A stretch of 64,000 nucleotides of DNA from an uncultured Prevotellaceae bacterium (GTDB taxonomy: Bacteria; Bacteroidota; Bacteroidia; Bacteroidales; Bacteroidaceae): assembly GCA_900316445.1 (NCBI GenBank), contig ONCZ01000002.1, positions 5,986-69,985 of the forward strand. The letters are read 5' to 3'. A program made the translations under genes and the position numbers. Position 1 is the stretch's first letter. Each line of letters starts with the position of its first letter. Shown in pieces: positions 25,461-56,207 of this stretch. The notes beneath the pieces were generated by a model. The model searched no databases, was not told where the DNA came from, and saw nothing but the letters and a program-made list of their open reading frames with translations.

Positions 25461-27950
25461 TTATGACTGAAGCATCTTGATGAGGAGTACAAGGTCTGCG
25501 GCATCCACCTTATTATCACCGTTCAAGTCGGCATTCTTGAGGTTAAAGCCTTCGAAGTCTCCCTCCATGATATATTTTACAACGGCATCAATGTCTGCAG
25601 CTTCTACCTTACCATTGCCGTCAGCATCACCAGAGATAGGTGTATCTTCCGGTTCTTCTGGATCTACCGGCTCTTCCTTCAAAATAAAAGACGTTTCAGC
25701 AGGGATTAACTCCACACCCATGTTTTCCGAGTAATACCAGATAGAATAGAAATACTTACCGTCAAGGTCAAGATCCTTAACCTCGAAGTTGACTTCCATC
25801 GTTTCTCCTGGCAGAATAGTGGTCATCACGGACTTTGTTTTATCGTACGAATAACCATAGCTTCCTGTCTTAGGATCTTCCCATGTGATCTTACACAATT
25901 GCAGCTTTATGCCATTCTCATACGTATTCGAGCCTTCATTCTTAACAATGGCATTAACCTTCAGTGTCGTACCTGTCAGTACATTATTCACGAGACCAGG
26001 CGTCGTTGCCGTAGCCGACAACAATTGCGGCTTAGCCGCTTCCACCGTAACTTGTTCAGACCAGACCTCGTTCGAAGCATAATAATCAGTTGATATCTTA
26101 AGAGTCATTGTGCCCACCTGAGCAGGTGTCAAATGCAACTTGACGTTTCCGGTCTGCCCAGCCTCCACAGAACCGCAAACGACAGTTTTCTGACTTCCCA
26201 ACGAGAGGTACACCAATTCCTGATAGGAGTCGCCATTGTTCGTCAGGTTCACTGTCACTTCTACAGGCTTTCCATACTCTAACGATGTTGGGTAGAAACT
26301 GACACTATTGACAGTAATCTTTGATGTATATTCATCTGGTTCAGACTTTCTCAGTGTCAGGTTATTGCCAGATACGACGGCCTCTATAAAGGTAATCGTC
26401 GGTGACCCATAATAATCATACGGAGTCTTGCATAACTGCCACTCTGTCGATCCTTGAAGTCTGTACATCTGACGGAACTGGTATCGGCCGTCATCTAGGT
26501 CTTTACCGAAGGAGATTGTGGGACTATTTAAGACGGCATTACTATTAATAAAATCCAAGGTAACGGGTTCTGAGACACCCAACACTTGCAGCAGACTGCC
26601 ATCCTTATACAAACCCCATCCCGTCTCAAAAGTACAGCCGTCAGTCTGGTCTGTATTTTCATATTGGAAGAAAACGAGGCCTGGAAAGACTACATCCGTG
26701 AAATCCTCATTGGCCGATACACGGCTAAACTCAGAGTTCACCAGATTCCCTTTAAACTTTCCATAAAATTGAGGTATTTCAACTTCCCCAGCTGTGCCGG
26801 GTTTCAGTCCGATGATGGCATGCTGATCCATGGAATAGCCGTCAGTACTCGTACCGCCTCCAGCTCCCAATTCATCGGGATTGGCCAAAGAGAGTACAAA
26901 GTAACCATCGCTCATGCCGCCCCATCCCCAGTTCATGTGGAAGAGCCCATTGCCATCATAACCATCGACGATAAATTGGTGACCACCGCTCATACTTGAT
27001 CCGCCATAGAGCACTGGACGGTTTTCAGAAATATCCTTATAGATCATATTCTCCCATTCTGACGATGAATACATGGATCTTATTACCTGTTTCGCATTGT
27101 TGCTAAACCCAAAATAATAGGCCATATCTACAGGAGTTATACCGGCAGACGATCCACCTAAATTATAATCCATTTCGACAGCCTGACCACAATAACGGAA
27201 CAGTTCTGCGACGGCCTCTGCCGATTCGTTTGTCTCATCTCCACGATACGTCTCTTTCATCTGAGACCACTTGAAGGTTGTTGCAGGCAACGCTTTCATT
27301 GTCCATCCATACGTACTCGTTTTATAGTCAGTAATAGCCGGGCAATCATCGAGGCATTTCCAATAATAGATCACCTGAGCCATTGCGGCAGCGACACAGC
27401 CCGTGACGCAGTGATAATTTGTCTGATCAATTGTCATGAGATGGTCTGTGTCAAAGCCAGCATCCCGCCAGTCTTTTCCACTCCAGTCGGGACACATCAT
27501 ATTATATGGGTAATTCTGATTCCACTTTGTCTTAATCAGCGGATCGACAGCATTCCAACTGTCTACCCCACGGGTCTTGACCTTTTGTACAGGCTTTGCC
27601 GAGGTGCCCAATGTCCCTATTTGACGGGCATAATTGTCGAGCCACCATTTCAGGTTCTCTGGCAACTGTTCCATATCGAGAGTGCCTGTATTGGAATAGC
27701 CAAGAATCTCCGTCGTGCGGTCATCGCCAGAAACGATGACAAAGCCCTGATTGCCATCGGCATTGAACACATAGAACGGCTCTCTTTCGGAAGAACTGGC
27801 GGAGCGAGCGAAACTTCTGGCCTCGCCAAACTGCTTACCTGGCATAAACTGTTGCGCTTTCTGCAGTGCCTGCTGTTTAGAAATTTGATCTGCATTCATG
27901 GCTACCGTCACCATGAAAGCCAATAGAGTTAATAGAACTTTCTTCATCAT
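25461..27950 (-). CDS. C10 (streptopain-like) cysteine peptidase with Ig/CARDB-like domains and a C-terminal dockerin-like module
   Basis: Signal peptide. Spi-type propeptide (ISKQQALQKAQQFMP...FYVFNADGNQGFVIVSGDD). Catalytic Cys (VTGCVAAAMAQV). His/Trp motif (GGHQFIVDGYDGNGLFHMNWGWGG). C-terminus GDADGNGKVEAADIDAVVKYI...NADLNGDNKVDAADLVLLIKML. Confidence 0.85.
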   Translation of the reverse strand: MMKKVLLTLLAFMVTVAMNADQISKQQALQKAQQFMPGKQFGEARSFARSASSSEREPFYVFNADGNQGFVIVSGDDRTTEILGYSNTGTLDMEQLPENLKWWLDNYARQIGTLGTSAKPVQKVKTRGVDSWNAVDPLIKTKWNQNYPYNMMCPDWSGKDWRDAGFDTDHLMTIDQTNYHCVTGCVAAAMAQVIYYWKCLDDCPAITDYKTSTYGWTMKALPATTFKWSQMKETYRGDETNESAEAVAELFRYCGQAVEMDYNLGGSSAGITPVDMAYYFGFSNNAKQVIRSMYSSSEWENMIYKDISENRPVLYGGSSMSGGHQFIVDGYDGNGLFHMNWGWGGMSDGYFVLSLANPDELGAGGGTSTDGYSMDQHAIIGLKPGTAGEVEIPQFYGKFKGNLVNSEFSRVSANEDFTDVVFPGLVFFQYENTDQTDGCTFETGWGLYKDGSLLQVLGVSEPVTLDFINSNAVLNSPTISFGKDLDDGRYQFRQMYRLQGSTEWQLCKTPYDYYGSPTITFIEAVVSGNNLTLRKSEPDEYTSKITVNSVSFYPTSLEYGKPVEVTVNLTNNGDSYQELVYLSLGSQKTVVCGSVEAGQTGNVKLHLTPAQVGTMTLKISTDYYASNEVWSEQVTVEAAKPQLLSATATTPGLVNNVLTGTTLKVNAIVKNEGSNTYENGIKLQLCKITWEDPKTGSYGYSYDKTKSVMTTILPGETMEVNFEVKDLDLDGKYFYSIWYYSENMGVELIPAETSFILKEEPVDPEEPEDTPISGDADGNGKVEAADIDAVVKYIMEGDFEGFNLKNADLNGDNKVDAADLVLLIKMLQS

Positions 27951-27987
27951 TCTTTATTTTTTAGTTATCATTTCTTATTTTAGGCTA

Positions 27988-27995
27988 CAAAGATA
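27988..27995 (-). promoter_or_regulatory. -7 box (TATCTTTG on the minus strand) for the 829-aa protease gene
   Basis: caaagata lies 38 nt upstream of the ATG at 27950, immediately downstream of hairpin copy 2. Confidence 0.5.
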
Positions 27996-28001
27996 CAAAT
28001 A

Positions 28002-28032
28002 AATCCCGAAACGACCAAACATTTCGGGAATT
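28002..28032. terminator. Conserved CCCGAAAC hairpin, copy 2
   Basis: aatcccgaaacgaccaaacatttcgggaatt. The loop is identical to copies 4 and 6. It ends the long protease operon. Confidence 0.75.
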
Positions 28033-28058
28033 ATTTATTAATAACTAAGGTGTAATAA

Positions 28059-31000
28059 CTACATCTTCTTAATCATGTTCACAAGGGTTACGATATCTTT
28101 GGCATTAATCTTATTATCACCATTCACATCGGCATTCTTGATATTAAAGCCATTGATGTCGCCATTCATGATATAACGGACTATGGATTCAATATCCTTA
28201 TTGTCTACTTTCTCATCATTATTGGCATCACCCAACATTTCTGACTCTTTAATAACATTTGTACGGTCTGCATTCATAATCTCGCCCGACTTGTTGTCTA
28301 TCAGTAACGTCACGATGCGGATGTTCTTCTTGTCTTGAATGTTGTCTGGAAGGTCGAAGGTGTATTCGTATTCATACGTTTGCCCAGCCACGACCGATGT
28401 CGGTACGCTGCCCTCCATTCCGTTCAGATCAGGATAAATTCCACGGGCCACATCGTTGAACCTCATCTCTACAGGACTACCTTTCTTATACCATTCATTC
28501 ATATAGTCATCAGGGTTGTCTGGCATAGAAGAGTCGCTGTAGAAATTAGCTTGACTATAAGGGCCAACGTTGTCCTCTACTACAACGTATGCAATACGGA
28601 AATCGGTATGCCCTTCATCCGTGAATCCAAAAGTAGTTGAAGTCTTCACCGTCACCGAAGTATTGTCCTCTGGTACAAAGACGACATTAGATTGAATTAT
28701 AGCGTCGGCATGGTCCTTTTGTTCCTCGTATGCTTTGGCTGCTTCATCAAGAGTGGAATCAATTGTTTTAAGCCGGTTGATGAGGAAAGTTGGAGTGGAT
28801 GAGTATTCTGTTATGTACTTACCATAATTGTAAGGTTCTCCCACAGCGTCAGCTGCTCCATAACAACTATTCTCATGTATTTCAATTGGAATGAAGTTGT
28901 TGGGATATTTCTCATGCATTTTTTCGGTAGCGACATAACCACGTGGAGACCATCCACACCATGTGCCAACAAAATCTTCCAAGACCATCTTGCGAGGATA
29001 ATGATTAGCAGAACTGGTAAATTCATAGACTAAGTGGCTGTTGGCTGGTATGGCATCTTCTATTCCATTCACACTGACCACATCTAATGTGAGTGTATGA
29101 TGGTAGCCTTCCAACTCTGTGGGGACATCAATTTCTAAAGTCTCTGCCAAACATGAGGCCAAGCAGGTCTCGATGGTCTTTGTTCCATTCACCTTGCCAT
29201 CGAAGTCCCATTTTATGGCATAAGATGTAAGAAGATCAGCACATCTGTTGACAACAGATACCTGAATCTTGTTTGTAGAATCTTCATTTACCATTTTCGG
29301 CTGACATAATCTCAAATCCTTTGGTAGGTTCTCACCTTCAATGATAAAACGAAGGGTCAATGGATGACCTGTTTCTTCATTGTAGCGATTCTCCCAAGTC
29401 TTATCCCCACCCATAATTCTGCACCATTGACCATCGTAATCATGGGGTTCAAATGAGGATATACCAAAATCATGCACATAATACCTTCCAATTCCAACAT
29501 AAAGCTCATCGCCAGTTATTATGTATGGTTCGGATAAAATTATGCTCTTCCACCCTGTTGTCCGAGAAACAGTTACTGATTGCTTTACCAGATAGTCTGT
29601 ACCAGGTTTGGTGATAAACACGTAGTCAGGAAAGTTTGAGTTGAGCATATTTATACAGAAGAACTCAATGCCAGTAATTTTTTGATCTTTATACTTGCCA
29701 ATCATCTCGGCAGGTACATGAATGGCAAGATCCACATCACATCTCTCGAGTGATCCTATTTCTGGCGAATTATAGTGTCCCGTATTATTATCATTAACAT
29801 ATCCCCATTTTACTGCCTTGTTTTCTACAACCAGGTCATCAGACAGGTTCCAGCTCTTCCATCCAGATTTTTGGTAATCAGGCATGGCTCCCTTTGGAAT
29901 ATGAAGTGTCACGTTTTCTTTTACCGAGAAATTATCCTCCCCATAAAATGGAGGCTGAGATGGCGGATATATCGACATGAAATACACATCTGTCAAAGCT
30001 GGCAGATAATCCTCAAACGGGCAGCCTTGAAACAGCAATTGATTAATGGTGTTAAACTTTATTGTTTTTAGTTTGTCACACAAGAATATCCTGTTTTTAT
30101 CAGGGTAATCAGTAGTACCTTCACGAAATTCTATGGTCTTCAATTTCGGACAATTCCATATACGAGGACCTTGAATCATAGAAATGGACAGCGATGTCAG
30201 CTCCTGACAATTCTCAAAAGTTGTAAGGTCGGCATCATAGACCTTATAATCTTTAGAATTATGTGAAATCACATCAGGAATTACTATGTCTCCTGAATAA
30301 TGACCTGATTGAGGTGTAATCACTGTTGCGTAATGTTTCTCATCTAAATCCTGCCATAAATCAAAAGCGATACCATCTTTAATCAAGTATCCATGATTAT
30401 CTCTTTCAAAAGACTTTGAAGTACCATCATAAATAAGCTTCATCAGATTATTGGATATTCGTATTTCAGTATAATAATCTGGCCGCAATCCACTTCCATA
30501 TAAATTCGCAACATCAGCAGACCATTCTTCTGAATCACTGCCCCTACATACTGGCAATAGGCAATAATCACCATCAGCAATTTTGTCATCTATGACAATA
30601 GAAGCAAAATAACCATAGCTTTCAGATTCGTCAGATCCAATTTCATGCTGTTCTTGGGCATAGACTGTAACAAAACCTTTTTCGTTAAAGAGACCCCAGC
30701 CCAACTGAAGTTTTTCCTTCTCACCAGTTGTGCTATATACATTCGCGAACATATTAAATTTTGGAAACGTCCCATCATCCCGTCGCCAAAAATACTTTTT
30801 TTCGCCATTATAAACTACGGAATAAACTTGTGCCTTAGGCTTAACAATCCCAGATGTTCCTTCAGGTGACTGAATTCCTATGACTGCATCTTGATAATCA
30901 TTGAAAGAATTGCCTGTGACGTTGAGACCTGTGAGCATGAAGAATCCATTGCTTTGACCATCCCATCCCCAATTCACATGATAGCGCCCAGAGTCATATC

Positions 31001-31922
31001 CGTCAATGACAAAAGCATGTCCTCCATAACCTGTCATAGATTCTCCGAAGCCAGAGTATATCACAGGTCGGCCTCCTGCCATCTCAGCATACATCAGGTT
31101 ATCCCACTCTTCGTCTGTATATTCTTCCTTAACGACAAATTGCGCACCATCTGGATATCCAAAGATATTCTTTAGCAACTCTGGTATGATTGAAGTATCT
31201 GCGGCAGACTCATCTACACCATAATTCATCTGAACTGCTTGTCCACAATAGAGCATCAGATTGCCAAGGAATTGCAGGCTCTCAGTTCCCCAGCCGAATT
31301 TGATGGGCTCCAACTGAGGCATGTATATCTGATTAGACCATGTGGTATATGCGGGGACTGTAGACGTGTAATCCTTAGGCCAACGGTTATAATTCAGAAC
31401 CTGAGCCATAGCAGTTGCCACACAGCCGGTCACAGAGCGTTGCCCATTATAAATAGGACATTTGGTATTATATGGGAAATCCTGTCCCCATTCTGTTGCC
31501 ATCAGTGTCTCTACTTTTGCACGTCCTTCTGCTCCACGGGTTCTGGCAGGGCGGATATAGTTCTTGTCGTTGGCAATAGCAGTGAGGACCTTCTCGTAAT
31601 AGTTAAGAAGTTCTTTTACATTGTCAGGAACGCTGTCAACATTCAGGCTACCACGGTCTGAATAGCCGAGGATGGGCTCTGTACGGTCATCACCTGAGAC
31701 AATCACAAAGCCCTTCTTGCCTTCAGCATTGAAGACATAAAAGGCTTCATATTCCGCAGGGCTGTCAGCTTTCTCACCTCTGGCAAAGGCTTTCACTTCC
31801 CCGAACTGTTTCCCCGGCATAAACTGCCGGGCCTTCTGCAAGGCTTCCTGCTTGGATACTCTCTCAGCATTCACAACCACCGTCACCATGACGGCCAAAA
31901 GTGTTAACAGCAACTTCTTCAT
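28059..31922 (-). CDS. Giant C10 cysteine peptidase with BspA-type LRR, thioredoxin-like (degenerate CxxC) domain and dockerin-like module
   Basis: VTGCVATAMAQV and GGHAFVIDGYDSGRYHVNWGWDG. LRR_5-like segment (NCQELTSLSI..NCPKLKTIEF). TWCGWSPRG. C-terminus GDANNDEKVDNKDIESIVRYI...NADVNGDNKINAKDIVTLVNMI. Confidence 0.85.
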   Translation of the reverse strand: MKKLLLTLLAVMVTVVVNAERVSKQEALQKARQFMPGKQFGEVKAFARGEKADSPAEYEAFYVFNAEGKKGFVIVSGDDRTEPILGYSDRGSLNVDSVPDNVKELLNYYEKVLTAIANDKNYIRPARTRGAEGRAKVETLMATEWGQDFPYNTKCPIYNGQRSVTGCVATAMAQVLNYNRWPKDYTSTVPAYTTWSNQIYMPQLEPIKFGWGTESLQFLGNLMLYCGQAVQMNYGVDESAADTSIIPELLKNIFGYPDGAQFVVKEEYTDEEWDNLMYAEMAGGRPVIYSGFGESMTGYGGHAFVIDGYDSGRYHVNWGWDGQSNGFFMLTGLNVTGNSFNDYQDAVIGIQSPEGTSGIVKPKAQVYSVVYNGEKKYFWRRDDGTFPKFNMFANVYSTTGEKEKLQLGWGLFNEKGFVTVYAQEQHEIGSDESESYGYFASIVIDDKIADGDYCLLPVCRGSDSEEWSADVANLYGSGLRPDYYTEIRISNNLMKLIYDGTSKSFERDNHGYLIKDGIAFDLWQDLDEKHYATVITPQSGHYSGDIVIPDVISHNSKDYKVYDADLTTFENCQELTSLSISMIQGPRIWNCPKLKTIEFREGTTDYPDKNRIFLCDKLKTIKFNTINQLLFQGCPFEDYLPALTDVYFMSIYPPSQPPFYGEDNFSVKENVTLHIPKGAMPDYQKSGWKSWNLSDDLVVENKAVKWGYVNDNNTGHYNSPEIGSLERCDVDLAIHVPAEMIGKYKDQKITGIEFFCINMLNSNFPDYVFITKPGTDYLVKQSVTVSRTTGWKSIILSEPYIITGDELYVGIGRYYVHDFGISSFEPHDYDGQWCRIMGGDKTWENRYNEETGHPLTLRFIIEGENLPKDLRLCQPKMVNEDSTNKIQVSVVNRCADLLTSYAIKWDFDGKVNGTKTIETCLASCLAETLEIDVPTELEGYHHTLTLDVVSVNGIEDAIPANSHLVYEFTSSANHYPRKMVLEDFVGTWCGWSPRGYVATEKMHEKYPNNFIPIEIHENSCYGAADAVGEPYNYGKYITEYSSTPTFLINRLKTIDSTLDEAAKAYEEQKDHADAIIQSNVVFVPEDNTSVTVKTSTTFGFTDEGHTDFRIAYVVVEDNVGPYSQANFYSDSSMPDNPDDYMNEWYKKGSPVEMRFNDVARGIYPDLNGMEGSVPTSVVAGQTYEYEYTFDLPDNIQDKKNIRIVTLLIDNKSGEIMNADRTNVIKESEMLGDANNDEKVDNKDIESIVRYIMNGDINGFNIKNADVNGDNKINAKDIVTLVNMIKKM

Positions 31923-31961: not shown

Positions 31962-34900
31962 TTATTTGATCTTGTTTATGAGCACAATATCAACGATATT
32001 CACTTTCTTGTCACCATTCACATCGGCATTCTTGAAGTTGAAGCCATTGGCATTGCCTTCTATGATATATTGTGAGATAGCATCAATGTCTTTGGAGTCC
32101 ACCACCCCATCGCAATTGGCATCACCAGGAATGTCAGTTTCCTGTACGACTTTCGCCTGGCCGGCATTAATAATCCGACCCGTGTTCTTGTCTAACAACA
32201 GTGCGACAGCAGAGAGCTTTGTCTTGTCCTGGATATGGCTGTTGTCCGTGATGTCAGCCCTCAAGGTATAGGGATTCGCCTGGCCAGCCTTGACACTGGT
32301 CGGGATGGTTCCTTCGATGCCTTTATATGGGCTCCAAGCAGCCACTGGCACGTAGTCATATTTCAAGCCTTCAATCTTGCTGGGCATATTGCACCATTTG
32401 TCAAACATAGGATCTTCTGGATATGGATTATTATCTGCAAAGCCATTGACCTGAGCCCATGCAGAGCCTGTCCCGCTTAAACCATCCTCTAACAAGACAA
32501 AGCCCAACTGGAATGGCAGATTGTCGGCATCCATTTCAAACTGGGTATCAGCACTAATGTCAATCTTGTTATGATCCTCATCTGCCCAAACAGCACGTAC
32601 GTTGACAGAACCTGGCACAACCATATTCAAGGCATACTGTACATCCCTATCAATTCCAAAGCGATCTGACATCCAGTATGTTAAATACTCACGTTTCGAA
32701 CCAATGTAAACATCTACCGCTTTCTTACGATTAACATATGTAACAGAAGAATTAGTGAGTGTCAAAATTTCATGATAATCATCAATTTCCATGATATCCA
32801 GATGGTGAATGACTATCGGAATAATCTTATCTCCATACATCTCACATAGTTTCTCTCTGACGGATATCCCCATAGGGCTATAATTGTATACCACTCCTGT
32901 TTTCTCCTCAAAGACGACATTCGTCTCTGGTTTTTTAGTCAAAGTAAACAAAGTACCTGTATCCGAGATATCTTTCTGGGCAGTATTGGCTACGCCATTG
33001 ACTTTCGTGATGGTGATGGTCTTCTCGTCATAACCTTGAACAGGGTCGGAATCTAACTCAAGGGTAACAGCCCTTTTGTTAAATGCCGGAATAGAGAGAG
33101 TAGCTTCTTTTTCGTATGAACCACTTTTTTTACCTGATACCTTATAGCTGATACTATTGACATTATTACCACCGTCATTAACGAGCACAAGTTCGGCTTG
33201 AGCCTTTCCATTCAAAATTGCAGAAGCGTGATTAAACCCAAGGACTCTGACGGCATTCTGATTGTAATTGCCACCACCAAACAACACATAAACCCTCAAA
33301 TTACCCCATTGGGGAACCAAATTCTCCCAATTGGACTGAAATGAAGGTCTTACCCAGAAAGCGCCTTCGCGATTCAACTCAGATCTTACACACTGCAAAG
33401 GATAACCCGCATTCATACCGCCCTCTGTGATATCAAAGGAATAGCCTACATAGAGACCTTCTTCAGGTATCACATGAGAATGTTTGAATGCTACTTGATG
33501 GTCTCGGAACATCTCTGTAGCCAACTGGCTATTGGGAACATCCAAAATCTCTACATCAGCATCCATTTCAGACTTAGGCAAATGAGTAGATACCCATAAG
33601 GTAACATTTTGCATCGCAAGAGTATTCCTGTAGATGTTGATACCATCAATAGTCGTACCTTGTCCACCCACCAAGTTGAAGGGGATATAAACGGCTACAT
33701 GATATCGTATGCCAACCCGTTCCTTACCAATGATATTAGTATTTTCACCCTCGCTATTATACATTTCCACTTCATCATGATTGCTCCACCACATCTGTCC
33801 TTCCTTCAGCTCCACATTATTGACAATCTGTACACCATCATCAATGGGTGTATCCGATGAAGCGAAAGGAATAGCTCCAGAGCTGTTGGCAGCCAGGGCG
33901 TCATCCTTACCATTAACTTTTGTAACCTGATAGATCAACTTATGGTACCTGTCAGAGAAGGTAGCTTCAAAGTTGAAACCTGCTTCCATCGAATGTCCTG
34001 GGCGCAAATCTGCCTCCAGCATTTTACTTCCTTGGTGACTGCCGTCAACATCCCATTCTAAGACAAACGATTTTACAATTTCCTGCGAATGGTTTTGCAC
34101 GGTCATCTTCACATCATAATGGTCTTCTTTCACATCAGATTTCTCCACTTGGATATCCATTACTGCCACATCGAGTGCCATATTATCACCACTGATGACA
34201 AACTTCAAAGGGATGGGATGCTCAAAATCTATAGTCTGATCCGGCATATACTTCCATGTTCCGGGCTCCATACCCTGACTATGATCATCACCCATCGTCC
34301 TGTACCAAAAACCGTCAGGAGCACTCACTTCGATATTTGACATATAAGTAGATATCAAACCATGACGGCCTACACCCACATACAGCTCGTCACCCGTGAT
34401 GGTATATGGCTCTGACAGTTCTATATCCATCCAGGCATTCTCCAAGATCTCAGCGTTCTGCTTCACGATATAGTCAGTACCCGGTTTGGTGATAAAGACA
34501 TAATCGCAAGCCTCTGTCGGCTGATAGAATAGTATATGGCTGATGGACTTTCCTATGTATGGAACCAGTACCTCAGCGGGAACATGAATGGCATACTCAC
34601 CATCGTTGTCACCACACTCGTCATAAACGGAATAAGGAGACACCTCATCACCATTGCAATAGCCCCACTCTATACCGTTAACCTCTGGCACGGGCTGGTC
34701 ATCCACGATATTCCACCCCTTCCAGCCTGCCGTTTCATAGTCAGCCTTGGCACCCTTGGGCACATGGATGGTGGTATTTGGATTCACAACAAACTCTCCG
34801 TCTTTCCAAGTAAAGACTGGTGGTTCTGGGGATGCGAAATAGACATCCGTCAAGGCAGGCAGAGACTCGGTATCCCAGTGAGGGTAGGAATAGAGAGTAA

Positions 34901-41070: not shown

Positions 41071-42165
41071 CTATTCAATCATGTTCACGATGAGTACAAT
41101 GTCGGTGGCATTGACTTTTTGATCACCGTTCATGTCGGCAGCATCCTTGTTGAAGTCCTCCGTTGGGTTCACGATATAGTTTGCCACCGCATGCGCATCA
41201 TTGATGTCTACCTTTCCATCACCATTCACGTCGCCTTTATTCAGACAAATGCGAGAGATACCCTTGAGTGTAGACCCCTCATAATAATAGAAATAGATGA
41301 TGCCTGAAAAAACTTCCTCAGGAGCCGTAAAGTTCAGCGTTTTACCGACAATCTCCACTGTACCTTTCGATGCGTATGCCGAAGTCAAAGAATAGTCCTC
41401 AGGAAGTCCTGTTTCCAGTGACACCGTTTTTCCTGCCTCTACCCTATAGTACTTGGGCGGTATGGCATAAGTAGTTATGGTTTTTTCTCCGTTAGTAAGT
41501 GTCACCTCTGTCGTTTCTGTGAGCCTTGTTCCCAGAATAGCCGTATGACTATCTCCGTCTATCTGAGCTGCCTCACTGACAGAACCACATTTTATGCTGG
41601 TGGCAGCCGACATGTTTGTATAACCCCGATAGCTGATCATTGGCTGACCACTACCATCAATATTCGCATAGAACTGGTATATGTCAAAGTAGGGCGCATC
41701 CTTCTCCATCTGCGAGCCCATTCCATAGAATGTGATATCACACAGACCAGGTGTATAGAAATAAGAGAAGTCGCTGATGTAGTTGTTGCTGACATCCAAC
41801 TTCAGGCTTTCGGACTGTATAAATGCCAGGATATTGATGTTCTCCAAATGGTTGTTGCTCAGGTTGAGCTCACGCAGTGATTCCAACGGCACCAATGGCG
41901 ACACATCGCTGATATCGTTATAACTGAGGTCGAGCTTGGATACTGCTGTCAGGTTAGCGACATCACGGATATCCGTAATCTCCAGTCCTGACAGGTTCAG
42001 CGTAGTGATGGTATCTGTTTGGGTCTGCAGCACATCGTCTGATTCACCAAGACCAATATGATGCCGTACACCATTTTCAAACTCAGGCGAATAAAAAGTC
42101 ACCTTCTGGGCCTGCGCCACCAATGCAGTCATCATGAGGACTGCTATACTTGCTATCTTTTTCAT
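41071..42165 (-). CDS. Internalin-type LRR protein with a C-terminal dockerin-like module
   Basis: Signal peptide. 22-aa LRRs ([28 protein letters not shown]). C-terminus [21 protein letters not shown]...[23 protein letters not shown]. Confidence 0.8.
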
Positions 42166-46756: not shown

Positions 46757-46817
46757 CGCAAACTATTTTCCTCTATCTGACTCTAAATGGCCTAAAATGG
46801 GCGTTTTTGACCGAAAA

Positions 46818-46903: not shown

Positions 46904-46963
46904 AACCCAAAAATAAAGAAAAAAATTTCAAAAAGTTTATTTGCACATTTCAGATATTTTCCG

Positions 46964-46971
46964 TACCTTTG
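46964..46971 (+). promoter_or_regulatory. -7 box TACCTTTG for the VirE-like gene
   Basis: Matches TAnnTTTG, 24 nt upstream of the ATG at 46995. Confidence 0.5.
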
Positions 46972-46994
46972 CAGAGAATACAAACGAAGGCATT

Positions 46995-49190: not shown

Positions 49191-49195
49191 AAAAT

Positions 49196-49933: not shown

Positions 49934-50155
49934 CTACCGAAACAATATGTCTGGGCAGACTCCAGCAACAAGATTGATTCCCGTGGGACCCATCTCGTCA
50001 AACTCCGGCATGAATCCCAATGCCTGAACATCGTCAATTGTAGCACGCTGAGCCTGAACCGTCAGACCTAAGCCCAGCATCAATACCATTATCAGTTGTT
50101 TTCTTATATCCTTAAAAGTAAGTATATTCATTGTCTTTTCTTCTTTAGAATGCAA
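49934..50155 (-). CDS. Small secreted hypothetical protein
   Basis: Signal-like segment IRKQLIMVLMLGLGLTVQAQ. Overlaps the stop of the upstream gene. The start may be the ATG at 50131. Confidence 0.3.
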   Translation of the reverse strand: MHSKEEKTMNILTFKDIRKQLIMVLMLGLGLTVQAQRATIDDVQALGFMPEFDEMGPTGINLVAGVCPDILFR

Positions 50156-51131
50156 GGAATGGGCGGATGCGCAGATCGTTCTTGGAAATGATATGAGTTA
50201 TTTGGAAACCAGAATTTGCCAAGAAATATGTAAGAATGACTCGGGTTGTTTTGGGATATGTCTTTTCAGGAGAACATGTCCAAAATCTATAGTTATTGAT
50301 ATTGACCGTTGTATCGCCCGCTTTTCTCAAGTCACCCAAAATCAGATCTCCAGCTTTGGAGCCATTATAGATCGGTTTCCCATTGGCATTATATCCATCA
50401 AATAGAGCGAAAGATCTCCAGTCAAGTTCAATACTTTCGTCAAATGTGAGACCGAATGACTGGTAGAAGGCTATATACTGTCCTGCACTGGGCATGAACC
50501 AACCACTGGTAATATTTCCAGGAGGAACGGGAACATCATAAGAAATAGGGACCTCAAGACCATTCCTGGCATCAATTTCAAAGAGTTTGTTAATGGATTC
50601 ATATCCAGAGGATTTATTGTTGATATGTTTACTACCATCTGTAATTTCCAAATCCGACAGGGCAATAGCCAATCCGCGATAGGTGTCGCTATTCTTGTCA
50701 GCCGATCCTGGTAAACCAACATACACGATCATGGCAATCGGCGTGATGCCGATAGTTCCTGCCGGATAGACCTTGCCGTCCAAGGCAATCACACTGCCCA
50801 GATCTTCTGCTGTGGCTTCACTCAACGCCTTGCCACGGTTCTGGCGCTTTGCCTCACTCATCATCAGATAGTCAGCAATGGTCTTCACGTCTTCCATATC
50901 GATTTTCCCATCGACATTGGCATCAGCCCAGATCTTCTTGACATCGACAATGACAGAAGTCCATAAGTTGTCTAAGTCAGAACGAGTCTTTAAGATGTAT
51001 TCTGATACAATCTCCACGATGTCAGCGACATCTACCTTACCGTCATTGTTGGCATCGCCCGATCCTGCGAACATAGCCGACGGCGTAAAGCACGCAAAAA
51101 ACAGAATTAACAGTTTCTTTCTCATATCCAT
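50145..51131 (-). CDS. Secreted protein with an N-terminal dockerin-like module and a DUF1566/Lcl-like C-terminal domain
   Basis: Signal peptide, then GDANNDGKVDVADIVEIVSEYI...ADANVDGKIDMEDVKTIADYLM. C-terminal motifs SGWFMPSAGQYIAF, FWTCSPE, LRIRPFLAF (weak DUF1566 resemblance). Confidence 0.65.
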   Translation of the reverse strand: MDMRKKLLILFFACFTPSAMFAGSGDANNDGKVDVADIVEIVSEYILKTRSDLDNLWTSVIVDVKKIWADANVDGKIDMEDVKTIADYLMMSEAKRQNRGKALSEATAEDLGSVIALDGKVYPAGTIGITPIAMIVYVGLPGSADKNSDTYRGLAIALSDLEITDGSKHINNKSSGYESINKLFEIDARNGLEVPISYDVPVPPGNITSGWFMPSAGQYIAFYQSFGLTFDESIELDWRSFALFDGYNANGKPIYNGSKAGDLILGDLRKAGDTTVNINNYRFWTCSPEKTYPKTTRVILTYFLANSGFQITHIISKNDLRIRPFLAF

Positions 51132-52929: not shown

Positions 52930-52954
52930 TGACATTAAATAAGCAATATCAAAA

Positions 52955-52986
52955 AATGGGGACTGACATGATTGTCATTCCCCATT
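52955..52986. terminator. Hairpin terminator between the convergent PqqD gene and the small peptide gene
   Basis: aatggggactgaca-tgat-tgtcattccccatt, 13 of 14 bp paired. An A6 run on the plus-strand 5' side gives a T-run for the minus-strand transcript. Confidence 0.7.
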
Positions 52987-53010
52987 AAATTTCAGATGTG
53001 TGTGAGAAGA

Positions 53011-53139
53011 TTATGCTTCACCATCATCATCACATTCATCAGCAATTTTCTCTTTACTCGGCTCAACAACGTTGTCCAATACAACAACCTCATCAACCTT
53101 TACTTCTTCCATTTCGGGAGCAAAATACTTCTTTTTCAT
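53011..53139 (-). CDS. 42-aa acidic single-cysteine peptide (candidate RiPP precursor), not in the ORF track
   Basis: Hand translation: MKKKYFAPEMEEVKVDEVVVLDNVVEPSKEKIADECDDDGEA*. It has its own -7 box (53206-53213), its own terminator (52955-52986), and is preceded by hairpin copy 5. Confidence 0.5.
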   Translation of the reverse strand: MKKKYFAPEMEEVKVDEVVVLDNVVEPSKEKIADECDDDGEA

Positions 53140-53213: not shown

Positions 53214-53218
53214 AGCAT

Positions 53219-53250
53219 AAATCCCGAAATGACCAAACATTTCGGGATTT
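53219..53250. terminator. Conserved CCCGAAAC hairpin, copy 5
   Basis: aaatcccgaaatgaccaaacatttcgggattt, one mismatch relative to copies 2, 4 and 6. Confidence 0.75.
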
Positions 53251-53303
53251 ATTTTACGATTTAGTGCAATATTTTGTCAATTTACTCACTTAACAATCAT
53301 CAC

Positions 53304-54806
53304 TTACTTAACCACGACCTTCTTACCATTCTTGATGTAGAGACCCTTTCTGGTCGGAGTGCTAATGCGCTGACCCCTCAGGTTGTACCAAGCGTCGTTG
53401 CCAGATTCTGCAGCAATACGGCTGATACCTGTGGCACTCTCTTCATCACCATCAAAAAGAATTCTGCTCAACTCGGCAACTTTCTCGTTAAGAACGATAT
53501 CTTCGGAACCACGGACAGAAGCCTTAGCCGTATATGAAGTCAAGATCTGGAGATATGCCTTATGTGCACCTGTCGTACGAGCCTTTGTAACCGGCGTGAA
53601 GCCCTTGCTACCAACGTAGAAATTCGAGTAGAGTCCGTCTGTCGGCTGAATCGTGATTGCCTCATCGGTGTTATTGCCTACCATCATGTTGGCATAGTTT
53701 GCCTGAACAGCAGCAGACTTAATCGTATAATCACCCTGAGGACCCTTAATATAAAGCGGAGTACCAGCTGATACACGCTTAACAGGTGTAATCCAAAGTG
53801 AACCATTCTCATATCCTATCACGGTATAGGCAGTCACTGACTTCTGGTCGGTGAAATCAAGGTCAACATTAGCACAGAGAGAAGTCTGATTTGCTTCACC
53901 TATCGACAATGCCCAATCTGTACCAGCCTTAGCAGCAGGCAGAGCAGCTACACGGATGTAAGCTTTATGAGCACCAATGTTACGTGCAGATGTAAACGGC
54001 GTGAAGCCCTTGGTTCCCAAGAAATAGAACTTGTCTTCACTTCCTGTAGGATCAACACTAATAGCCTCATCCGTATTGTTACCAATCAGGAAGCTCTTGA
54101 AATAAGTCTTTGTCAGTGTTGTCGTAGCCACAGCGAAGGTTCCGGCCTCATTACCTTTGACGTAAATTGGCGTTCCAGCTGGAACCTGGCTAATGCGTGC
54201 CGACCAAATACCGTCCTCGTCAATACCTGTTACAAGGTAAGCGGTCAAATCTTTATTATCTGTGAAGTCTAGATCTTTGTCACAAATAAACGTCGTCGCC
54301 TTAGAATCACCAATAGTAATTGAAACGCCCTCAGCAATCGTGACAGTGGCAACATCGCCACCAGCCTGCTTTGTAGAGGTGCCTTCGGGATCAACAACCA
54401 GGTTCTGGTCTTCAGTACCATTGAGTGAAACTTTTCCAGTCTCTGCTTCATTTTCAGCCTCCAAGGTAATCAGCACACCATCACCGTCACTTGTCAAAGT
54501 AGCATTCTCATTATCGTATGACAAGAAACGATAGATATTGTTACTGGGATCAACCTGCTGGAACTTCAACTCACGGCCGGCACCGTATGAGCCTTTCATG
54601 CCTGCGCTTTTGACACTCACCTTAGCAGGCAACTTCAGATCGAATTGGAAAGCCGTGTTGCTCGTAGGTTTGTCAATCGTGACCTCCATCTGACCCGTAC
54701 CGCCTTTAGTAAGGGTAACATCTTTAACACTAATTGCCGACTGGGCATAAGCCATTGCTCCACAAAGGGAGACAGCCATCATCGTAAATAGTTTCTTCAT
54801 GTTCAT
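53304..54806 (-). CDS. Surface protein with an N-terminal cohesin-like domain, two copies of a ~125-aa repeat domain and a T9SS-type C-terminal tail
   Basis: Signal peptide. AISVKDVTLTKGGTGQMEVTIDKPTSNTAFQFDLKLPAKVSV resembles the cohesin beta-sandwich start. Internal duplication (LDFTDNKDLTAYLVTG...GAHKAYIRV and LDFTDQKSVTAYTVIG...GAHKAYLQI). Tail WYNLRGQRISTPTRKGLYIKNGKKVVVK. Confidence 0.55.
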   Translation of the reverse strand: MNMKKLFTMMAVSLCGAMAYAQSAISVKDVTLTKGGTGQMEVTIDKPTSNTAFQFDLKLPAKVSVKSAGMKGSYGAGRELKFQQVDPSNNIYRFLSYDNENATLTSDGDGVLITLEAENEAETGKVSLNGTEDQNLVVDPEGTSTKQAGGDVATVTIAEGVSITIGDSKATTFICDKDLDFTDNKDLTAYLVTGIDEDGIWSARISQVPAGTPIYVKGNEAGTFAVATTTLTKTYFKSFLIGNNTDEAISVDPTGSEDKFYFLGTKGFTPFTSARNIGAHKAYIRVAALPAAKAGTDWALSIGEANQTSLCANVDLDFTDQKSVTAYTVIGYENGSLWITPVKRVSAGTPLYIKGPQGDYTIKSAAVQANYANMMVGNNTDEAITIQPTDGLYSNFYVGSKGFTPVTKARTTGAHKAYLQILTSYTAKASVRGSEDIVLNEKVAELSRILFDGDEESATGISRIAAESGNDAWYNLRGQRISTPTRKGLYIKNGKKVVVK

Positions 54807-54856
54807 TTAATATTTTAAATTAATTATTAGTTACACATTTATATACTATTTGGTTG

Positions 54857-54864
54857 CAAATTTA
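54857..54864 (-). promoter_or_regulatory. -7 box (TAAATTTG on the minus strand) for the cohesin-like gene
   Basis: caaattta lies 51 nt upstream of the ATG at 54806. Confidence 0.5.
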
Positions 54865-54869
54865 AAAAA

Positions 54870-54906
54870 AAATCCCGAAACGACCAAACATTTCGGGACT
54901 TTTTTT
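54870..54906. terminator. Conserved CCCGAAAC hairpin, copy 6, with runs on both sides
   Basis: aaaaaaaaatcccgaaacgaccaaacatttcgggacttttttt. Confidence 0.8.
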
Positions 54907-54938
54907 CAAAAATAGTATGATTTTTCTTTTTTCCCCCT

Positions 54939-56207
54939 TTATTCTGCTATGGTGTGCTCCTTCACAATCTGGATTACCTTCACCAAATCAGCCACATTGA
55001 CAGTACCATCTCCATTGACATCGGCCAGTGTCAAATTAAAGACAACGGGAGGTGCGCCCATGATATAATCGACAATGGCATTTACATCATTCAAGTCAAC
55101 AATACCGTTGCCATTGACATCGCCTGGGAGATCAACACTACCGGTACACTTGGCATAGTAGATCTTGCCATGAGCCGTGGCGCGTCTTCCGATTCTGGTG
55201 CCAGCCCGGACAGCACTGGCTTTCTCTACCATATATATATATACATAGGTGTCTTCATTTACATCGTATGGTACTGACAGCCATTTGCGTGTCGTACTGG
55301 ATATTTGGACTGGGGCATTGTCGCCAACCTTCACATGGAAGGCAAAGTCTGACTCATTCTCTGCTTCTATTTTGATGAAGCCCTTACCTTTGCTCACCAT
55401 CATGGTGATACCTCCGGCAAAGTCAATGGCATAGCCACCATCTCCAGGAGAATAGCTATGATTTTTAACAGCATTATTCACATTATCGACAGCAGCGTCA
55501 GTAAGTAGCGACCCAATATAAATGACACCCTCGCCATCCTCATCCTCAAAACCATCATCATTCGACCCGTCCAATGTAAAGAGAATGCCTCTATAAGAAT
55601 AGTTAGACAGGTCTGCTGACGACAACTCCGAAGGATCAAAGGCCACAGTTTTATCATTTTCGAGAGGAACTACTGCATCATCAATATAGACCGTGACACT
55701 CCTTAGCCCAGAGACTGACGCGCCATTCGTTGCTGACTGAGGTGATGCGATAAACTTTAGGGACAATGGTTCTGACAGCATGCCATAGGATAATTGTGTA
55801 ATACCGTAATCCATTGTCTTCTGATTATAAACCAGTTCTCCCAACTCTGTCTGACCGACATACGCCTTGAGTTCCAAGCCGTAAGCATTATCGCATGTGA
55901 CACTGACACTCTTAATCGTGCCAGAAAAAGTTTGTGCGGACGTCAGTGTCAGTGAACTCTCTGCGACGTCAGAAGGACTGAGATAGAAGTAAAGAGCATC
56001 GGCATCTTCAGAATAGCCAAAATTGCCGACGGTTCCTGTGTCGGAGTAAGTCCACACTATGGCACCATTTGCATTCATGATGCTGCCTTTTGACGGAGTG
56101 CCAAAGCCGATAGTATATTCTGAGGCCTGGCCTGTCAACGAACTCAGCAATAAGGGCAGAGCCAACATGAATGCCCTCCAGTTTTTTGAGTAGTGATAAT
56201 TTGACAT
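54939..56207 (-). CDS. Secreted protein of unknown function with a C-terminal dockerin-like module
   Basis: Signal peptide (AFMLALPLLLSSLTGQA). C-terminus GDVNGNGIVDLNDVNAIVDYI...LADVNGDGTVNVADLVKVIQIV. Only 26 nt downstream of the PP2C gene, with no promoter box between. Confidence 0.7.
   Translation of the reverse strand: MSNYHYSKNWRAFMLALPLLLSSLTGQASEYTIGFGTPSKGSIMNANGAIVWTYSDTGTVGNFGYSEDADALYFYLSPSDVAESSLTLTSAQTFSGTIKSVSVTCDNAYGLELKAYVGQTELGELVYNQKTMDYGITQLSYGMLSEPLSLKFIASPQSATNGASVSGLRSVTVYIDDAVVPLENDKTVAFDPSELSSADLSNYSYRGILFTLDGSNDDGFEDEDGEGVIYIGSLLTDAAVDNVNNAVKNHSYSPGDGGYAIDFAGGITMMVSKGKGFIKIEAENESDFAFHVKVGDNAPVQISSTTRKWLSVPYDVNEDTYVYIYMVEKASAVRAGTRIGRRATAHGKIYYAKCTGSVDLPGDVNGNGIVDLNDVNAIVDYIMGAPPVVFNLTLADVNGDGTVNVADLVKVIQIVKEHTIAE

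Follow-up and report, generated by a model that had tools for sequence, protein, structure and literature searches.

Whether dockerin-tagged proteins of a Gram-negative bacterium are gathered on the cell surface by a cohesin of their own is the question raised by a locus of rumen Prevotella. It lies in a 64-kb window, meaning the whole stretch of DNA that was analysed. The first-pass annotation read this locus as a set of dockerin-tagged proteases and adhesin-like proteins with one cohesin-like partner that ends in a type IX secretion system (T9SS) tail. This overall reading is supported by the fold of the partner, by matches of its relatives to Pfam Cohesin (PF00963), and by motifs of a short T9SS C-terminal domain (CTD), and each of the proposed checks that were run agrees with it. 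All eight ORFs, p1-p8, are verified at the coordinates given below, on the minus strand.

Dockerin-tagged proteins

The dockerin-tagged ORFs are as follows, with bit scores for Pfam Dockerin_1 (gathering score, 22.9 bits).

p1, 25461..27950, minus strand: I69 pro-domain, C10, CARDB-like domain and C-terminal dockerin (nt 25464-25643; 44.4 bits), by Pfam
p2, 28059..31922, minus strand: I69, C10, Omp28-like region and C-terminal dockerin (nt 28062-28247; 35.1 bits)
p3, 31962..36788, minus strand: I69, C10, long region and C-terminal dockerin (nt 31965-32144; 35.6 bits)
p4, 36829..41037, minus strand: I69, C10, BspA-type LRR, Omp28-like domain and divergent C-terminal dockerin (nt 36832-37005); Pfam matches are C10, LRR_5 and Omp28
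p5, 41071..42165, minus strand: internalin-like LRR protein (LRR_4 and LRR_8) with C-terminal dockerin (nt 41074-41250; 51.5 bits)
p6, 50145..51131, minus strand: 328 aa; dockerin at aa 21-91 (nt 50859-51071; 23.7 bits, marginal), then C-terminal ~235 aa
p7, 54939..56207, minus strand: 422 aa; a signal peptide is followed by a tandem pair of beta jelly-roll (CBM-like) domains and, C-terminally, a dockerin (aa 359-418, nt 54954-55133; 37.8 bits)

A two-loop type-I dockerin is present in all seven ORFs, as the first-pass annotation had stated. Six of them reach the gathering score of Dockerin_1. The seventh, p4, gives no Pfam dockerin match at E<=0.01. Two loops, DADCNKVIDQKD and ETNNDRKVNVID, are nevertheless present in its last 58 residues, which match a profile derived from only the other six dockerins (61.7 bits, E 3e-20). 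All seven match one common, locally built profile at 60-99 bits, p6 at 79.9 bits. Judged by these matches, the modules are genuine dockerins of type I and differ from generic EF-hands. The dockerin is located at the extreme C-terminus in six proteins and directly behind the signal peptide in p6, as originally described. When the whole window is scanned in all six frames, the same seven dockerins and no further ones are found. With the same profile, 871 kb of control rumen-Prevotellaceae DNA yields three dockerin ORFs. The count of seven in 64 kb therefore greatly exceeds background, though the window was chosen for its dockerin content.

Four ORFs encode C10 cysteine proteases, in which an I69 pro-domain and intact Cys and His are present, and two of the dockerin ORFs contain LRRs. 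Pfam detects no glycoside hydrolase among the dockerin cargo, in agreement with the earlier description of this cargo as cysteine proteases and LRR proteins. The dockerin is found at the C-terminus of all of the best 120 homologs of p1 (45-95% identity; locally built profile). The AF2 model of p7 (pLDDT 82.9) is matched by tandem jelly-roll/CBM modules in Foldseek, at low TM-score. The signal peptides of p1-p5 and p7 are plain Sec signal peptides, and these proteins have neither a lipobox nor a CTD. The signal peptide of p6 contains a Cys, and the canonical lipobox is not matched. No known outer-membrane sorting signal is found in p1-p7, and by current rules all of them would remain periplasmic.

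Cohesin protein p8

The features of p8 and its downstream flank are as follows.

p8, 53304..54806, minus strand: 500 aa; signal peptide, cohesin, two beta-sandwich spacer domains and short T9SS-type C-terminal tail
cohesin domain, 54333..54743, minus strand: aa 22-158, by Foldseek, Pfam matches of the family and a domain profile
tandem beta-sandwich repeats, 53523..54329, minus strand: aa 160-292 and 296-428, ~130 aa each
short CTD-like tail, 53307..53432, minus strand: aa 459-500, about 41 aa, GISRIAAESGNDAWYNLRGQRISTPTRKGLYIKNGKKVVVK
terminator-like hairpin, 53217..53252, minus strand: 15-bp, right behind the p8 stop codon, by consensus scan only

p8 itself matches no Pfam or NCBIfam model, PF00963 included. 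Its designation as cohesin-like is supported by the fold and by the relatives. The best 23 Foldseek matches of the AF2 model (pLDDT 86.8) in the PDB are all solved cohesins (e.g. 2jh2, 5nrm and 2vn6), with a target-normalised TM-score of up to 0.77. Full-length homologs number 274, and PF00963 is matched by 10 of 44 full-length family members (best E 1.1e-7). By sequence only, the p8 cohesin profile matches solved cohesins at E 0.05-0.4, which is not significant; the only full-domain matches, weak ones, are given by the Clostridium perfringens NagJ cohesin. Invariant among 44 homologs are a run of six residues in strand 3 (T50-D55) and two residues of strand 6 (R92 and L94); these strands are part of the 8-3-6-5 dockerin-binding face. 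The two repeats behind the cohesin are all-beta with pLDDT above 90, and each is matched by the profile of the other. They have no Pfam match and presumably form a stalk or spacer. p8 is a monovalent anchor rather than a multi-socket scaffold, because it contains only one cohesin. The p8 family profile detects no second cohesin in the 64-kb window, so that the locus has one cohesin for seven dockerins.

The tail of p8 is not matched by the standard T9SS models TIGR04183 and PF18962, but its proposed T9SS type is supported by its conservation and motifs. T458, I460, G477, R479, G487, Y489, I490, K495 and K499 are invariant. The motifs are a cleavage motif T/GI, with an invariant Ile at +2, and motifs B (Y..G.R), D (GLYI) and E (KKVVVK); cleavage is predicted between T458 and G459. 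A tail of this type is located at the extreme C-terminus in 77 of 80 unrelated large proteins; thermolysin-type peptidase, pullulanase and rhamnogalacturonan lyase domains are among those recognised in the carriers. As far as its sequence tells, the p8 tail agrees motif by motif with the short CTD of Prevotella intermedia, which has been validated by experiment as a T9SS signal (Ye et al. 2025, PMC11969387). No T9SS gene is recognised among the window ORFs scanned.

Conservation of the p7-p8 pair and clustering of dockerin genes

A dockerin gene of the p7 type is located directly upstream of the cohesin gene at seven loci (L001-L004 and L068-L070), at which p8 identity is 41-56%. Thus, p7-p8 is a conserved gene pair in rumen Prevotella genomes, newly described here. 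One locus (L004) contains two p8 paralogs in tandem, and one lineage has a p7 dockerin without the first Ca2+ loop. At a related locus (L071), p8 is present and the p7 neighbour is absent. The consensus scan finds no terminator-like hairpin between p7 and p8, and this, together with the hairpin behind p8, fits a p7-p8 operon. By locally built profiles, cohesin-containing loci have 17 dockerin ORFs in 218 kb and control loci 3 in 871 kb, so that the density is approximately 20-fold higher in the former. When the adjacent p7 orthologs are subtracted, 9 dockerin ORFs are observed as compared to 0.75 expected (Poisson 1e-7). This enrichment around cohesin genes is likewise new here.

The p8 cohesin might bind the p7 dockerin only, in a two-protein surface unit, and the dockerins of the C10 and LRR proteins might use different cohesins, from other parts of the genome or from other cells. 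In that case, the 31-kb cluster would be a matter of shared regulation or island structure rather than one assembly. The gene-for-gene conservation is indeed limited to p7-p8 adjacency, and the C10/LRR block, ~3 to 28 kb off and past a VapE/BT4734 primase-like gene, varies among genomes. The tandem p8 paralogs also favour this explanation, as does the size of the cohesin family, in which several cohesins per protein are frequent and further sockets in the same genome therefore plausible. However, the enrichment near the cohesin gene persists for dockerin genes that are not p7 orthologs, all seven dockerins fit one profile, and the window has no second cohesin of this family. We regard so restricted a pairing as rather unlikely.

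Wider family of the p8-type cohesin

The p8-type cohesin family, also new here, comprises 5,531 representatives. Of the best 143, 130 contain several cohesins and 74 a dockerin; the short tail is present in 57 and a canonical long CTD in at least 13. Thus, as its members' sequences suggest, the family consists mostly of multi-cohesin proteins, many with dockerins and short or canonical T9SS tails. Relatives match PF00963 down to E 1e-32, and one protein found by the p8 cohesin domain profile (P0242) is by Pfam Cohesin x6 plus Por_Secre_tail. Fusion of cohesin and dockerin in one polypeptide is a hallmark of scaffoldins and adaptors, and such fusions occur repeatedly: Coh-LRR-Coh-Doc-Coh-Doc and C10-Doc-Coh-tail (both at L046), Doc-Coh-tail (L009), and Coh-Doc beside Coh-X-tail (L011).

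These fusions speak against the absence of any assembly, in which case the dockerin-like modules would be Ca2+-binding stabilising or matrix-binding tags, the p8 N-terminus a generic beta-sandwich such as a carbohydrate-binding module, and the clustering a surface-protein island beside a capsule locus. Failure of p8 itself to match Pfam Cohesin, the non-significant sequence profile and the non-cellulosomal cargo are compatible with this explanation. Isolated dockerins without cohesins are also widespread, as Peer et al. in 2009 are said to have noted (cited in PMC6487960). Nevertheless, it is quite improbable, given that cohesins are the exclusive best structure matches, that relatives match PF00963 so strongly, that the p1 dockerin is retained in every relative inspected and that the dockerin-cohesin gene adjacency is conserved.

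Proposed mechanism

We consider it reasonably likely that p8 is exported by the T9SS, is anchored at the surface and, with its single cohesin, captures C10 proteases and LRR proteins that carry a dockerin. The Sec signal peptide would take p8 to the periplasm, where the T9SS would recognise its short CTD of ~41 residues. The sortase-like peptidase PorU would cut p8 at ~T458/G459 and attach it covalently to a surface glycan (LPS), with the N-terminal cohesin kept off the outer membrane by the two beta-sandwich spacer domains. This cohesin would serve as a socket for Ca2+-dependent binding of the type-I dockerins encoded nearby, first that of its conserved neighbour, the tandem jelly-roll binding protein p7, and likewise those of the four C10 proteases and the LRR proteins. 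A changeable protease/adhesin-like set would thus be displayed on the cell and its vesicles. We infer the specificity of this binding and the passage of the dockerin proteins to the outside. Several observations count against the mechanism: p8 itself escapes PF00963, and its tail escapes TIGR04183 and PF18962; the scanned window ORFs include no recognised T9SS gene; p1-p7 would by current rules be left in the periplasm; one cohesin faces seven dockerins; the C10 and LRR dockerins are unlike the p7 dockerin and may therefore use a socket encoded elsewhere in the genome; L071 has no p7 neighbour; and the p7 dockerin of one lineage lacks its first Ca2+ loop. The searchable literature contains no description of such a T9SS-tailed cohesin anchor with dockerin-tagged proteases. 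If correct, this mechanism represents a little-described way of surface protein display in Gram-negative bacteria.

Comparison with known systems

Single-cohesin anchoring scaffoldins are represented by ScaE of Ruminococcus flavefaciens, which is anchored by sortase/LPXTG, and by SdbA and OlpA of Acetivibrio thermocellus, which are SLH-anchored. p8 appears comparable to a monovalent anchoring scaffoldin like ScaE, with T9SS/PorU attachment replacing sortase/LPXTG. They share one cohesin on a spacer and a C-terminal sorting module for surface attachment, as predicted for p8, and p8 would likewise capture dockerin proteins of its own genome and be attached covalently by a sortase-type enzyme. 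Unlike these scaffoldins, p8 belongs to a Gram-negative host with an outer membrane, has a T9SS short CTD (PorU pathway, glycan/LPS attachment) instead of LPXTG or SLH, and has a cohesin too divergent for PF00963. The cargo at its locus, C10 proteases and LRR proteins, differs from the glycoside hydrolases of the cellulosome. The closest solved structures to the p8 cohesin are those of C. perfringens toxin/glycosidase complexes (NagJ cohesin; PDB 2jh2, 2o4e, 2ozn and 2w1n), in which a cohesin-dockerin pair also acts outside cellulose degradation and joins virulence-type enzymes. However, their host is a Firmicute, and the modules are located inside large, mutually joining glycosidases, with neither a dedicated surface anchor nor a T9SS tail.

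Cohesin-dockerin pairs are species-specific as a rule and a cognate-type cohesin is encoded beside the dockerins in the same genome, so that docking of Prevotella dockerins, acquired from Firmicutes, to scaffoldins of cellulosomal rumen Ruminococcus instead of p8 is hardly tenable, even though Bensoussan et al. (2016, PMC6487960) inferred lateral dockerin transfer from Firmicutes to Bacteroidetes and did not find cohesin and dockerin together on any Bacteroidetes contig. Their survey did not see the p8 cohesin because the Pfam model misses it. It describes rumen Prevotella dockerin proteins that include 'streptopain/peptidase C10-DOC', the same kind of C10 and type-I dockerin protein from the same habitat and genus, but proposed neither a partner nor a T9SS link for them.

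The p8 tail falls in the same length class (40-55 aa) as the short CTDs found on cargo of P. intermedia and shares their cleavage, B, D and E motifs, and the cargo families, LRR proteins and proteases, are alike (PMC11969387). The proposed arrangement also resembles the gingipain/adhesin complexes of Porphyromonas gingivalis in placing cysteine proteases on a Bacteroidota surface. In these oral species, each protease or LRR protein has its own CTD, whereas at the p8 locus a dockerin takes its place in the proteases and the CTD is confined to the cohesin protein. Attachment of the proteases would therefore be indirect and non-covalent.

Dockerin modules and their carrier proteins

The eight ORFs named by the first-pass annotation are all present, as follows.

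25461-27950, minus strand: p1, C10 protease with dockerin
28059-31922, minus strand: p2, C10 protease with dockerin
31962-36788, minus strand: p3, C10 protease with dockerin
36829-41037, minus strand: p4, C10 protease with LRR and dockerin
41071-42165, minus strand: p5, LRR protein with dockerin
50145-51131, minus strand: p6, dockerin protein
53304-54806, minus strand: p8, cohesin-like protein
54939-56207, minus strand: p7, dockerin protein

The assignment of type-I dockerins to seven of these ORFs is upheld. Six of the modules (p1, p2, p3, p5, p6 and p7) match Pfam Dockerin_1 (PF00404) above its gathering cut-off of 22.9 bits, with scores of 23.7-51.5 bits and with p6 marginal. The p4 ORF (36829-41037) gives no match to PF00404 at E<=0.01. 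The last 58 residues of p4 contain two recognizable Ca2+ loops and score 61.7 bits against a profile built only from the other six modules, and therefore this module is a divergent dockerin rather than a false positive. The type-I dockerin is a tandem of two segments, about 22 residues long, in which a 12-residue Ca2+ loop, with D or N at positions 1, 3, 5, 9 and 12, is followed by a helix. The tandem segments and both loops are visible in all seven modules when they are aligned. A six-frame profile scan detects exactly these seven modules in the window and no others. The module is located at the extreme C-terminus in six proteins and directly after the signal peptide in p6, as originally described.

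Four of the carriers are C10 cysteine proteases, each with an I69 pro-domain and with its catalytic Cys and His intact. Two carriers contain LRRs, and one of them (p4) is also counted among the proteases; two have no known domains. No glycoside hydrolase domain is detected by Pfam in the dockerin proteins of the window, so that the domain searches agree with the earlier view that the cargo is cysteine proteases and LRR proteins, not glycoside hydrolases. The C-terminal dockerin is kept in all of the 120 best relatives of p1 (45-95% identity), which argues that the module of this C10 family is under selection. No module swap, with a T9SS tail substituted for the dockerin, is found among these 120 C10 relatives.

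Cohesin domain of p8

p8 matches no model of Pfam up to E 10 and none of NCBIfam up to E 0.1. These direct searches are silent, and p8 is identified solely through its family alignment, its modelled structure and a domain profile. p8 has 274 homologs, and the 120 listed are almost all full length (about 500 aa); the full-length relatives are from rumen Prevotella MAGs. The Pfam Cohesin model (PF00963), which does not detect p8 itself, individually matches ten of the 44 full-length homologs in the family alignment (best E 1.1e-7), and it matches proteins retrieved with the p8-domain profile at 1.9e-32 and 6.9e-21.

The AlphaFold2 model of p8 built on the 44-member alignment is confident (pLDDT 86.8), and each of its 23 best PDB matches by Foldseek is a cohesin module. 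Among these are cohesins of Clostridium perfringens that are non-cellulosomal (2jh2, 2w1n and 2o4e), and the cellulosomal cohesins 2vn5, 5nrm and 6kgd, which were solved with bound dockerins. For single-module cohesin targets, 138-155 columns are aligned with the model, at target-normalised TM-scores of up to 0.77. The cohesin fold is a nine-stranded flattened beta-sandwich (jelly-roll) of about 140 residues. By the model and its structure matches, the N-terminal domain of p8, initially described only as cohesin-like, has this fold. When a profile of the cohesin domain only is compared with the PDB, C. perfringens cohesins are matched over the whole domain, weakly and non-significantly (E 0.05-0.4), and the whole-length p8 alignment matches the tail alone, in 4kca and 7jvi.

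Invariant across the p8 family are a run of six residues in strand 3 (T50-A51-F52-Q53-F54-D55) as well as R92 and L94 in strand 6. These strands are part of the dockerin-binding 8-3-6-5 face of cohesins, and this face of the p8 cohesin may be under selection. C-terminal to the cohesin domain, two mutually related beta-sandwich domains of about 130 aa, which belong to no known family, probably act as a spacer. p8 contains one cohesin, so that the scaffold role first proposed for it gives way to that of a candidate monovalent anchor.

p7, the conserved neighbor of p8

The AlphaFold2 model of p7 (pLDDT 82.9) consists of two tandem beta jelly-rolls followed by a three-helix dockerin (helices at aa 372-418). 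It resembles tandem CBM-like and galactose-binding-like modules, and p7 is probably a binding protein, nothing more specific; a specific function is not assigned because all of these matches have low TM-scores. In seven related loci (L001-L004 and L068-L070, of which L002 and L069 are apparently from the same genome), the gene directly upstream of the cohesin gene shares its strand and encodes a p7 ortholog of 400-460 aa that ends in a dockerin. Downstream of p8 the window has a strong terminator-like hairpin, and there is no such hairpin between p7 and p8. The gap between the two genes (54807-54938) is exactly 132 nt, keeps the same reading frame and contains five stop codons.

In one Prevotella lineage (L069:8608-9843 and proteins P0201-P0240), the dockerin of the 410-aa p7 ortholog no longer has its first Ca2+ loop and retains the second loop and helix, and the cohesin partner of this ortholog is intact. 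This dockerin may be a single-mode dockerin.

C-terminal tail of p8

Conservation within the p8 family is highest in the last 41 residues of the protein (GISRIAAESGNDAWYNLRGQRISTPTRKGLYIKNGKKVVVK). The key residues of this 41-aa tail (ATGISRIAAESGNDAWYNLRGQRISTPTRKGLYIKNGKKVVVK) are invariant in the 44 homologs, and these include T458 and I460. The tail was initially taken for a T9SS-type sorting tail, and p8 matches neither TIGR04183 nor PF18962. A link to these two families through other carriers is likewise not found: among 33 tails of this type (p8 and 32 other proteins) one reaches only E 0.097 with TIGR04183 and none matches PF18962. T9SS sorting tails of a short type (short CTDs) have been described in Prevotella intermedia (Ye et al. 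2025, PMC11969387). With a length of 40-55 residues, they fold into a sheet of three strands, and they undergo the same cleavage and C-terminal glycosylation as long CTDs (Ye et al. 2025, PMC11969387). Their motifs, with spacers of 6-11 aa and 1-6 aa between them, are (P)T/GI for cleavage, in which the Ile at +2 is conserved, motif B of Y..G and a basic residue, motif D of GxY or GxN and a subsequent Ile, and a basic motif E near the end (Ye et al. 2025, PMC11969387). By motif comparison, rather than by an HMM, the p8 tail fits each of these features, namely length, the motif for cleavage as well as motifs B, D and E.

A pattern of the tail retrieves 63 loci of rumen Prevotellaceae or Bacteroidales, in which 80 tail-bearing ORFs lie outside the cohesin family. 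The tail is at the very end of 77 of these 80 ORFs, whose products range from 200 to 2,800 aa and have few recognized domains (among them a thermolysin-type peptidase, a pullulanase, a rhamnogalacturonan lyase and a CBM). Since the loci were selected by the pattern, only the position of the tail and the diversity of its carriers are independent evidence. In the p8 model, the tail region consists of a low-confidence linker (aa 452-467), a two-residue bridge at about 472-473 and two clear strands (487-491 and 494-498). Because it fits the motifs and similar tails are at the extreme C-terminus of diverse carriers, the tail of p8 is read as a predicted short T9SS sorting signal. Two solved structures of gut or rumen metagenomic origin, those of an arabinanase (4kca_A, 639-682) and a beta-helix domain (7jvi_A, 812-842), end in the same short tail and could show it experimentally.

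Genomic neighborhood and linkage of cohesins and dockerins

The gene order around p8 is kept across species whose p8 proteins are 41-56% identical, as follows.

Start: CNNM transporter, SurA-like chaperone, TPR-SpoIIE phosphatase, p7, p8, small ORF
Middle: PqqD/radical SAM, VapE/BT4734 primase-like gene, LRR and C10 dockerin genes
End: UpxY-like NusG, capsule export genes

Because the flanking gene order is conserved across species, the p8 locus is a chromosomal neighborhood and not a recent insertion. An origin of the cluster from a prophage or mobile element is rejected: the VapE/BT4734-like gene is present, but the flanking order from SurA, SpoIIE, p7, p8 and radical SAM to UpxY and capsule genes is chromosomal synteny kept across species.

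Most of the 63 loci retrieved by the tail pattern contain other tail-bearing proteins and were reused as controls, while some hold extra cohesin proteins. When dockerin ORFs are counted with locally built profiles, with the window itself excluded, the cohesin-containing loci have 17 in 218 kb, and the control loci, which come from comparable rumen Prevotellaceae or Bacteroidales, have 3 in 871 kb. Without the p7 orthologs, 9 are observed and 0.75 are expected (Poisson 1e-7). Cohesins and dockerins occur together, either as adjacent genes in the seven loci or on the same polypeptide in fused proteins.

Several other features of the neighborhood are observed. A radical SAM/SPASM-like enzyme (51327-52691, plus strand) and an 84-aa ORF in a PqqD-like position (52675-52929, plus strand) converge with a 42-aa acidic ORF (53011-53139, minus strand; MKKKYFAPEMEEVKVDEVVVLDNVVEPSKEKIADECDDDGEA) directly downstream of p8. 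A trio of a 44-50 aa ORF, PqqD and radical SAM is at the same position in L068, L070 and L071, and L069 has PqqD and radical SAM with a different small ORF. The trio at 51327-53139 looks like a RiPP cassette conserved beside p8. Immediately upstream of p7, a TPR-SpoIIE (PP2C) phosphatase is encoded (56234-58294, minus strand). In two loci, L069 and L070, genes for a STAS protein and for a protein of about 120 aa lie between this phosphatase gene and p7, which points to a regulatory module of the partner-switching type that is linked with the dockerin-cohesin pair.

The VapE/BT4734 primase-like gene (46941-49190, plus strand) and a DUF6078 gene (45960-46475, minus strand) lie between the cohesin pair and the C10/LRR block. 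The GC content of 45960-49190 is 0.49-0.51, as compared to 0.41-0.46, and the same genes are at this place in L068 and L069. This segment may be what is left of a mobile element, or else a conserved module for recombination that drives the variability of the dockerin block. A small protein with two CxxCxGxG zinc-finger motifs (49370-49828, minus strand), which resembles the DnaJ central domain at a sub-threshold score, adjoins p6. A BspA-type LRR protein of 1,247 aa (42162-45905, minus strand) has a signal peptide and neither dockerin nor short tail, and its stop overlaps the start of p5 by 4 nt. A low-GC (0.37-0.43) capsule/polysaccharide locus (12422-25388), with genes for a sugar transferase, a flippase, a TupA-like ATP-grasp protein and Wzc- and Wza-like export proteins, ends at a divergent UpxY/NusG-like gene (24849-25388, plus strand) that abuts the first C10-dockerin gene. 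This juxtaposition is also found in L070 and L071.

Fusion proteins and the wider cohesin family

The cohesin profile detects proteins in which cohesins are combined with dockerins and other modules at three other loci of Prevotellaceae, as follows.

L046:125-7307: Coh-LRR-Coh-Doc-Coh-Doc and Big2-LRR-C10-Doc-Coh-tail proteins
L009:1649-2491: Doc-Coh-tail protein
L011:4360-10450: Coh-Doc protein beside a Coh-X-tail protein

Pfam confirms the dockerins, C10 and LRR of these proteins, and again misses the cohesins. In a search of 1.84 billion representative proteins, the p8 cohesin profile matches 5,531 at E<=1e-3 and 2,159 at E<=1e-10. Among the best 143 of the 5,531 matches, 130 contain at least two cohesins (14 at most, in a protein of 3,008 aa), a dockerin is present in 74, and the C-terminal end is the short tail in 57 and a canonical long CTD in at least 13. 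These scaffoldin-like proteins (P0241-P0383) are evidently of Bacteroidota origin, as judged from their T9SS-type tails. Pfam detects six copies of Cohesin together with Por_Secre_tail in P0242, and both Cohesin and Dockerin_1 in P0248 and in P0251, the latter of which has the short tail at its end as well. Its Cohesin model misses many of these proteins, with no match in P0244, P0246, P0250 and P0252. By the Pfam matches of P0242, P0251 and P0248, members of its own family connect the divergent Prevotella cohesin, at the level of sequence, to textbook cohesins whose carrier proteins have textbook T9SS tails. The p8 cohesin belongs to a large family that has apparently been overlooked.

Discussion

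Display of dockerin-tagged proteins by surface-anchored p8 is the reading best supported by these results, with p7 certainly a candidate partner and the C10 and LRR proteins probably so. According to this reading, p8 would be exported by the T9SS, cleaved by the sortase-like peptidase PorU and linked to surface glycan, and its single cohesin would capture dockerin-tagged proteins, presumably in a Ca2+-dependent manner, so that proteases and adhesins would be displayed on the outer membrane or on vesicles. The first-pass interpretation is supported overall, with the corrections that p8 would be an anchor and not a scaffold, that its tail is a predicted short CTD which the standard models miss, and that one of the dockerins is below the Pfam threshold.

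This display requires an exit from the periplasm. p1-p5 and p7 have ordinary Sec signal peptides with neither lipobox nor CTD, and a Cys is present in the p6 signal peptide, in a setting unlike a canonical lipobox. All seven dockerin proteins are predicted by current rules to stop in the periplasm. Possible exits are release by vesicles or lysis, an unrecognised route, or co-export through the T9SS translocon in a cohesin-bound state. In the last case, the dockerin proteins would bind the p8 cohesin in the periplasm and cross the outer membrane as T9SS passengers. Piggyback transport is established for Tat and for peroxisomal import. The T9SS translocon passes folded proteins (PMC9251779), and no report of piggyback or hitchhiker export by the T9SS is found in the searched literature. 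In a broader view, thousands of Bacteroidota proteins with up to 14 cohesins each may act in a scaffoldin-like manner. That such hitchhiker export and a widespread T9SS-linked cohesin-dockerin surface assembly in Bacteroidota both hold is rather unlikely in our estimation.

Cohesin-dockerin assembly is regarded as a way of digesting plant fibre that belongs to Gram-positive bacteria, the Firmicutes. One rumen study states that cohesins and dockerins are absent from Bacteroidetes genomes (Naas et al. 2018, PMC5831590). Another survey assigned dockerins, including a C10 peptidase-dockerin protein, to rumen Prevotella, and Bacteroidetes contributed none of the 18 contigs on which it saw both modules (Bensoussan et al. 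2016, PMC6487960). It is the one survey in which Prevotella dockerins were seen, and it offered no partner for them (PMC6487960). The p8 locus supplies this missing candidate partner, as judged from sequence, and ties it to the secretion and anchoring system of the phylum itself, with proteases and adhesin-like proteins as cargo. No description of cohesins, dockerins or scaffoldins combined with the T9SS is found in a literature coverage that leaves out most subscription journals, so that an earlier mention is possible. The system would have been missed by standard annotation because the curated models of Pfam and NCBIfam miss the cohesin and the short tail alike, which, if the binding is real, would be a blind spot of annotation. 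Real binding would also permit modular and exchangeable arming of the surface or vesicles in a highly abundant rumen genus, bear on ruminal protein breakdown and nitrogen efficiency, pose the sharp and testable question of how proteins without a T9SS signal exit the periplasm, and provide a natural cohesin-dockerin display system for engineering of Gram-negative bacteria.

A cellulosome has a primary scaffoldin with multiple cohesins, usually with a CBM, and glycoside hydrolases as cargo. The p8 system is not a cellulosome, because p8 has one cohesin and the dockerin cargo contains no glycoside hydrolase, in agreement with its initial description as non-cellulosomal, although multi-cohesin relatives of p8 exist elsewhere in the family. 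In its proposed mode of working, p8 would instead be comparable to ScaE, in that it would likewise be a monovalent anchoring scaffoldin.
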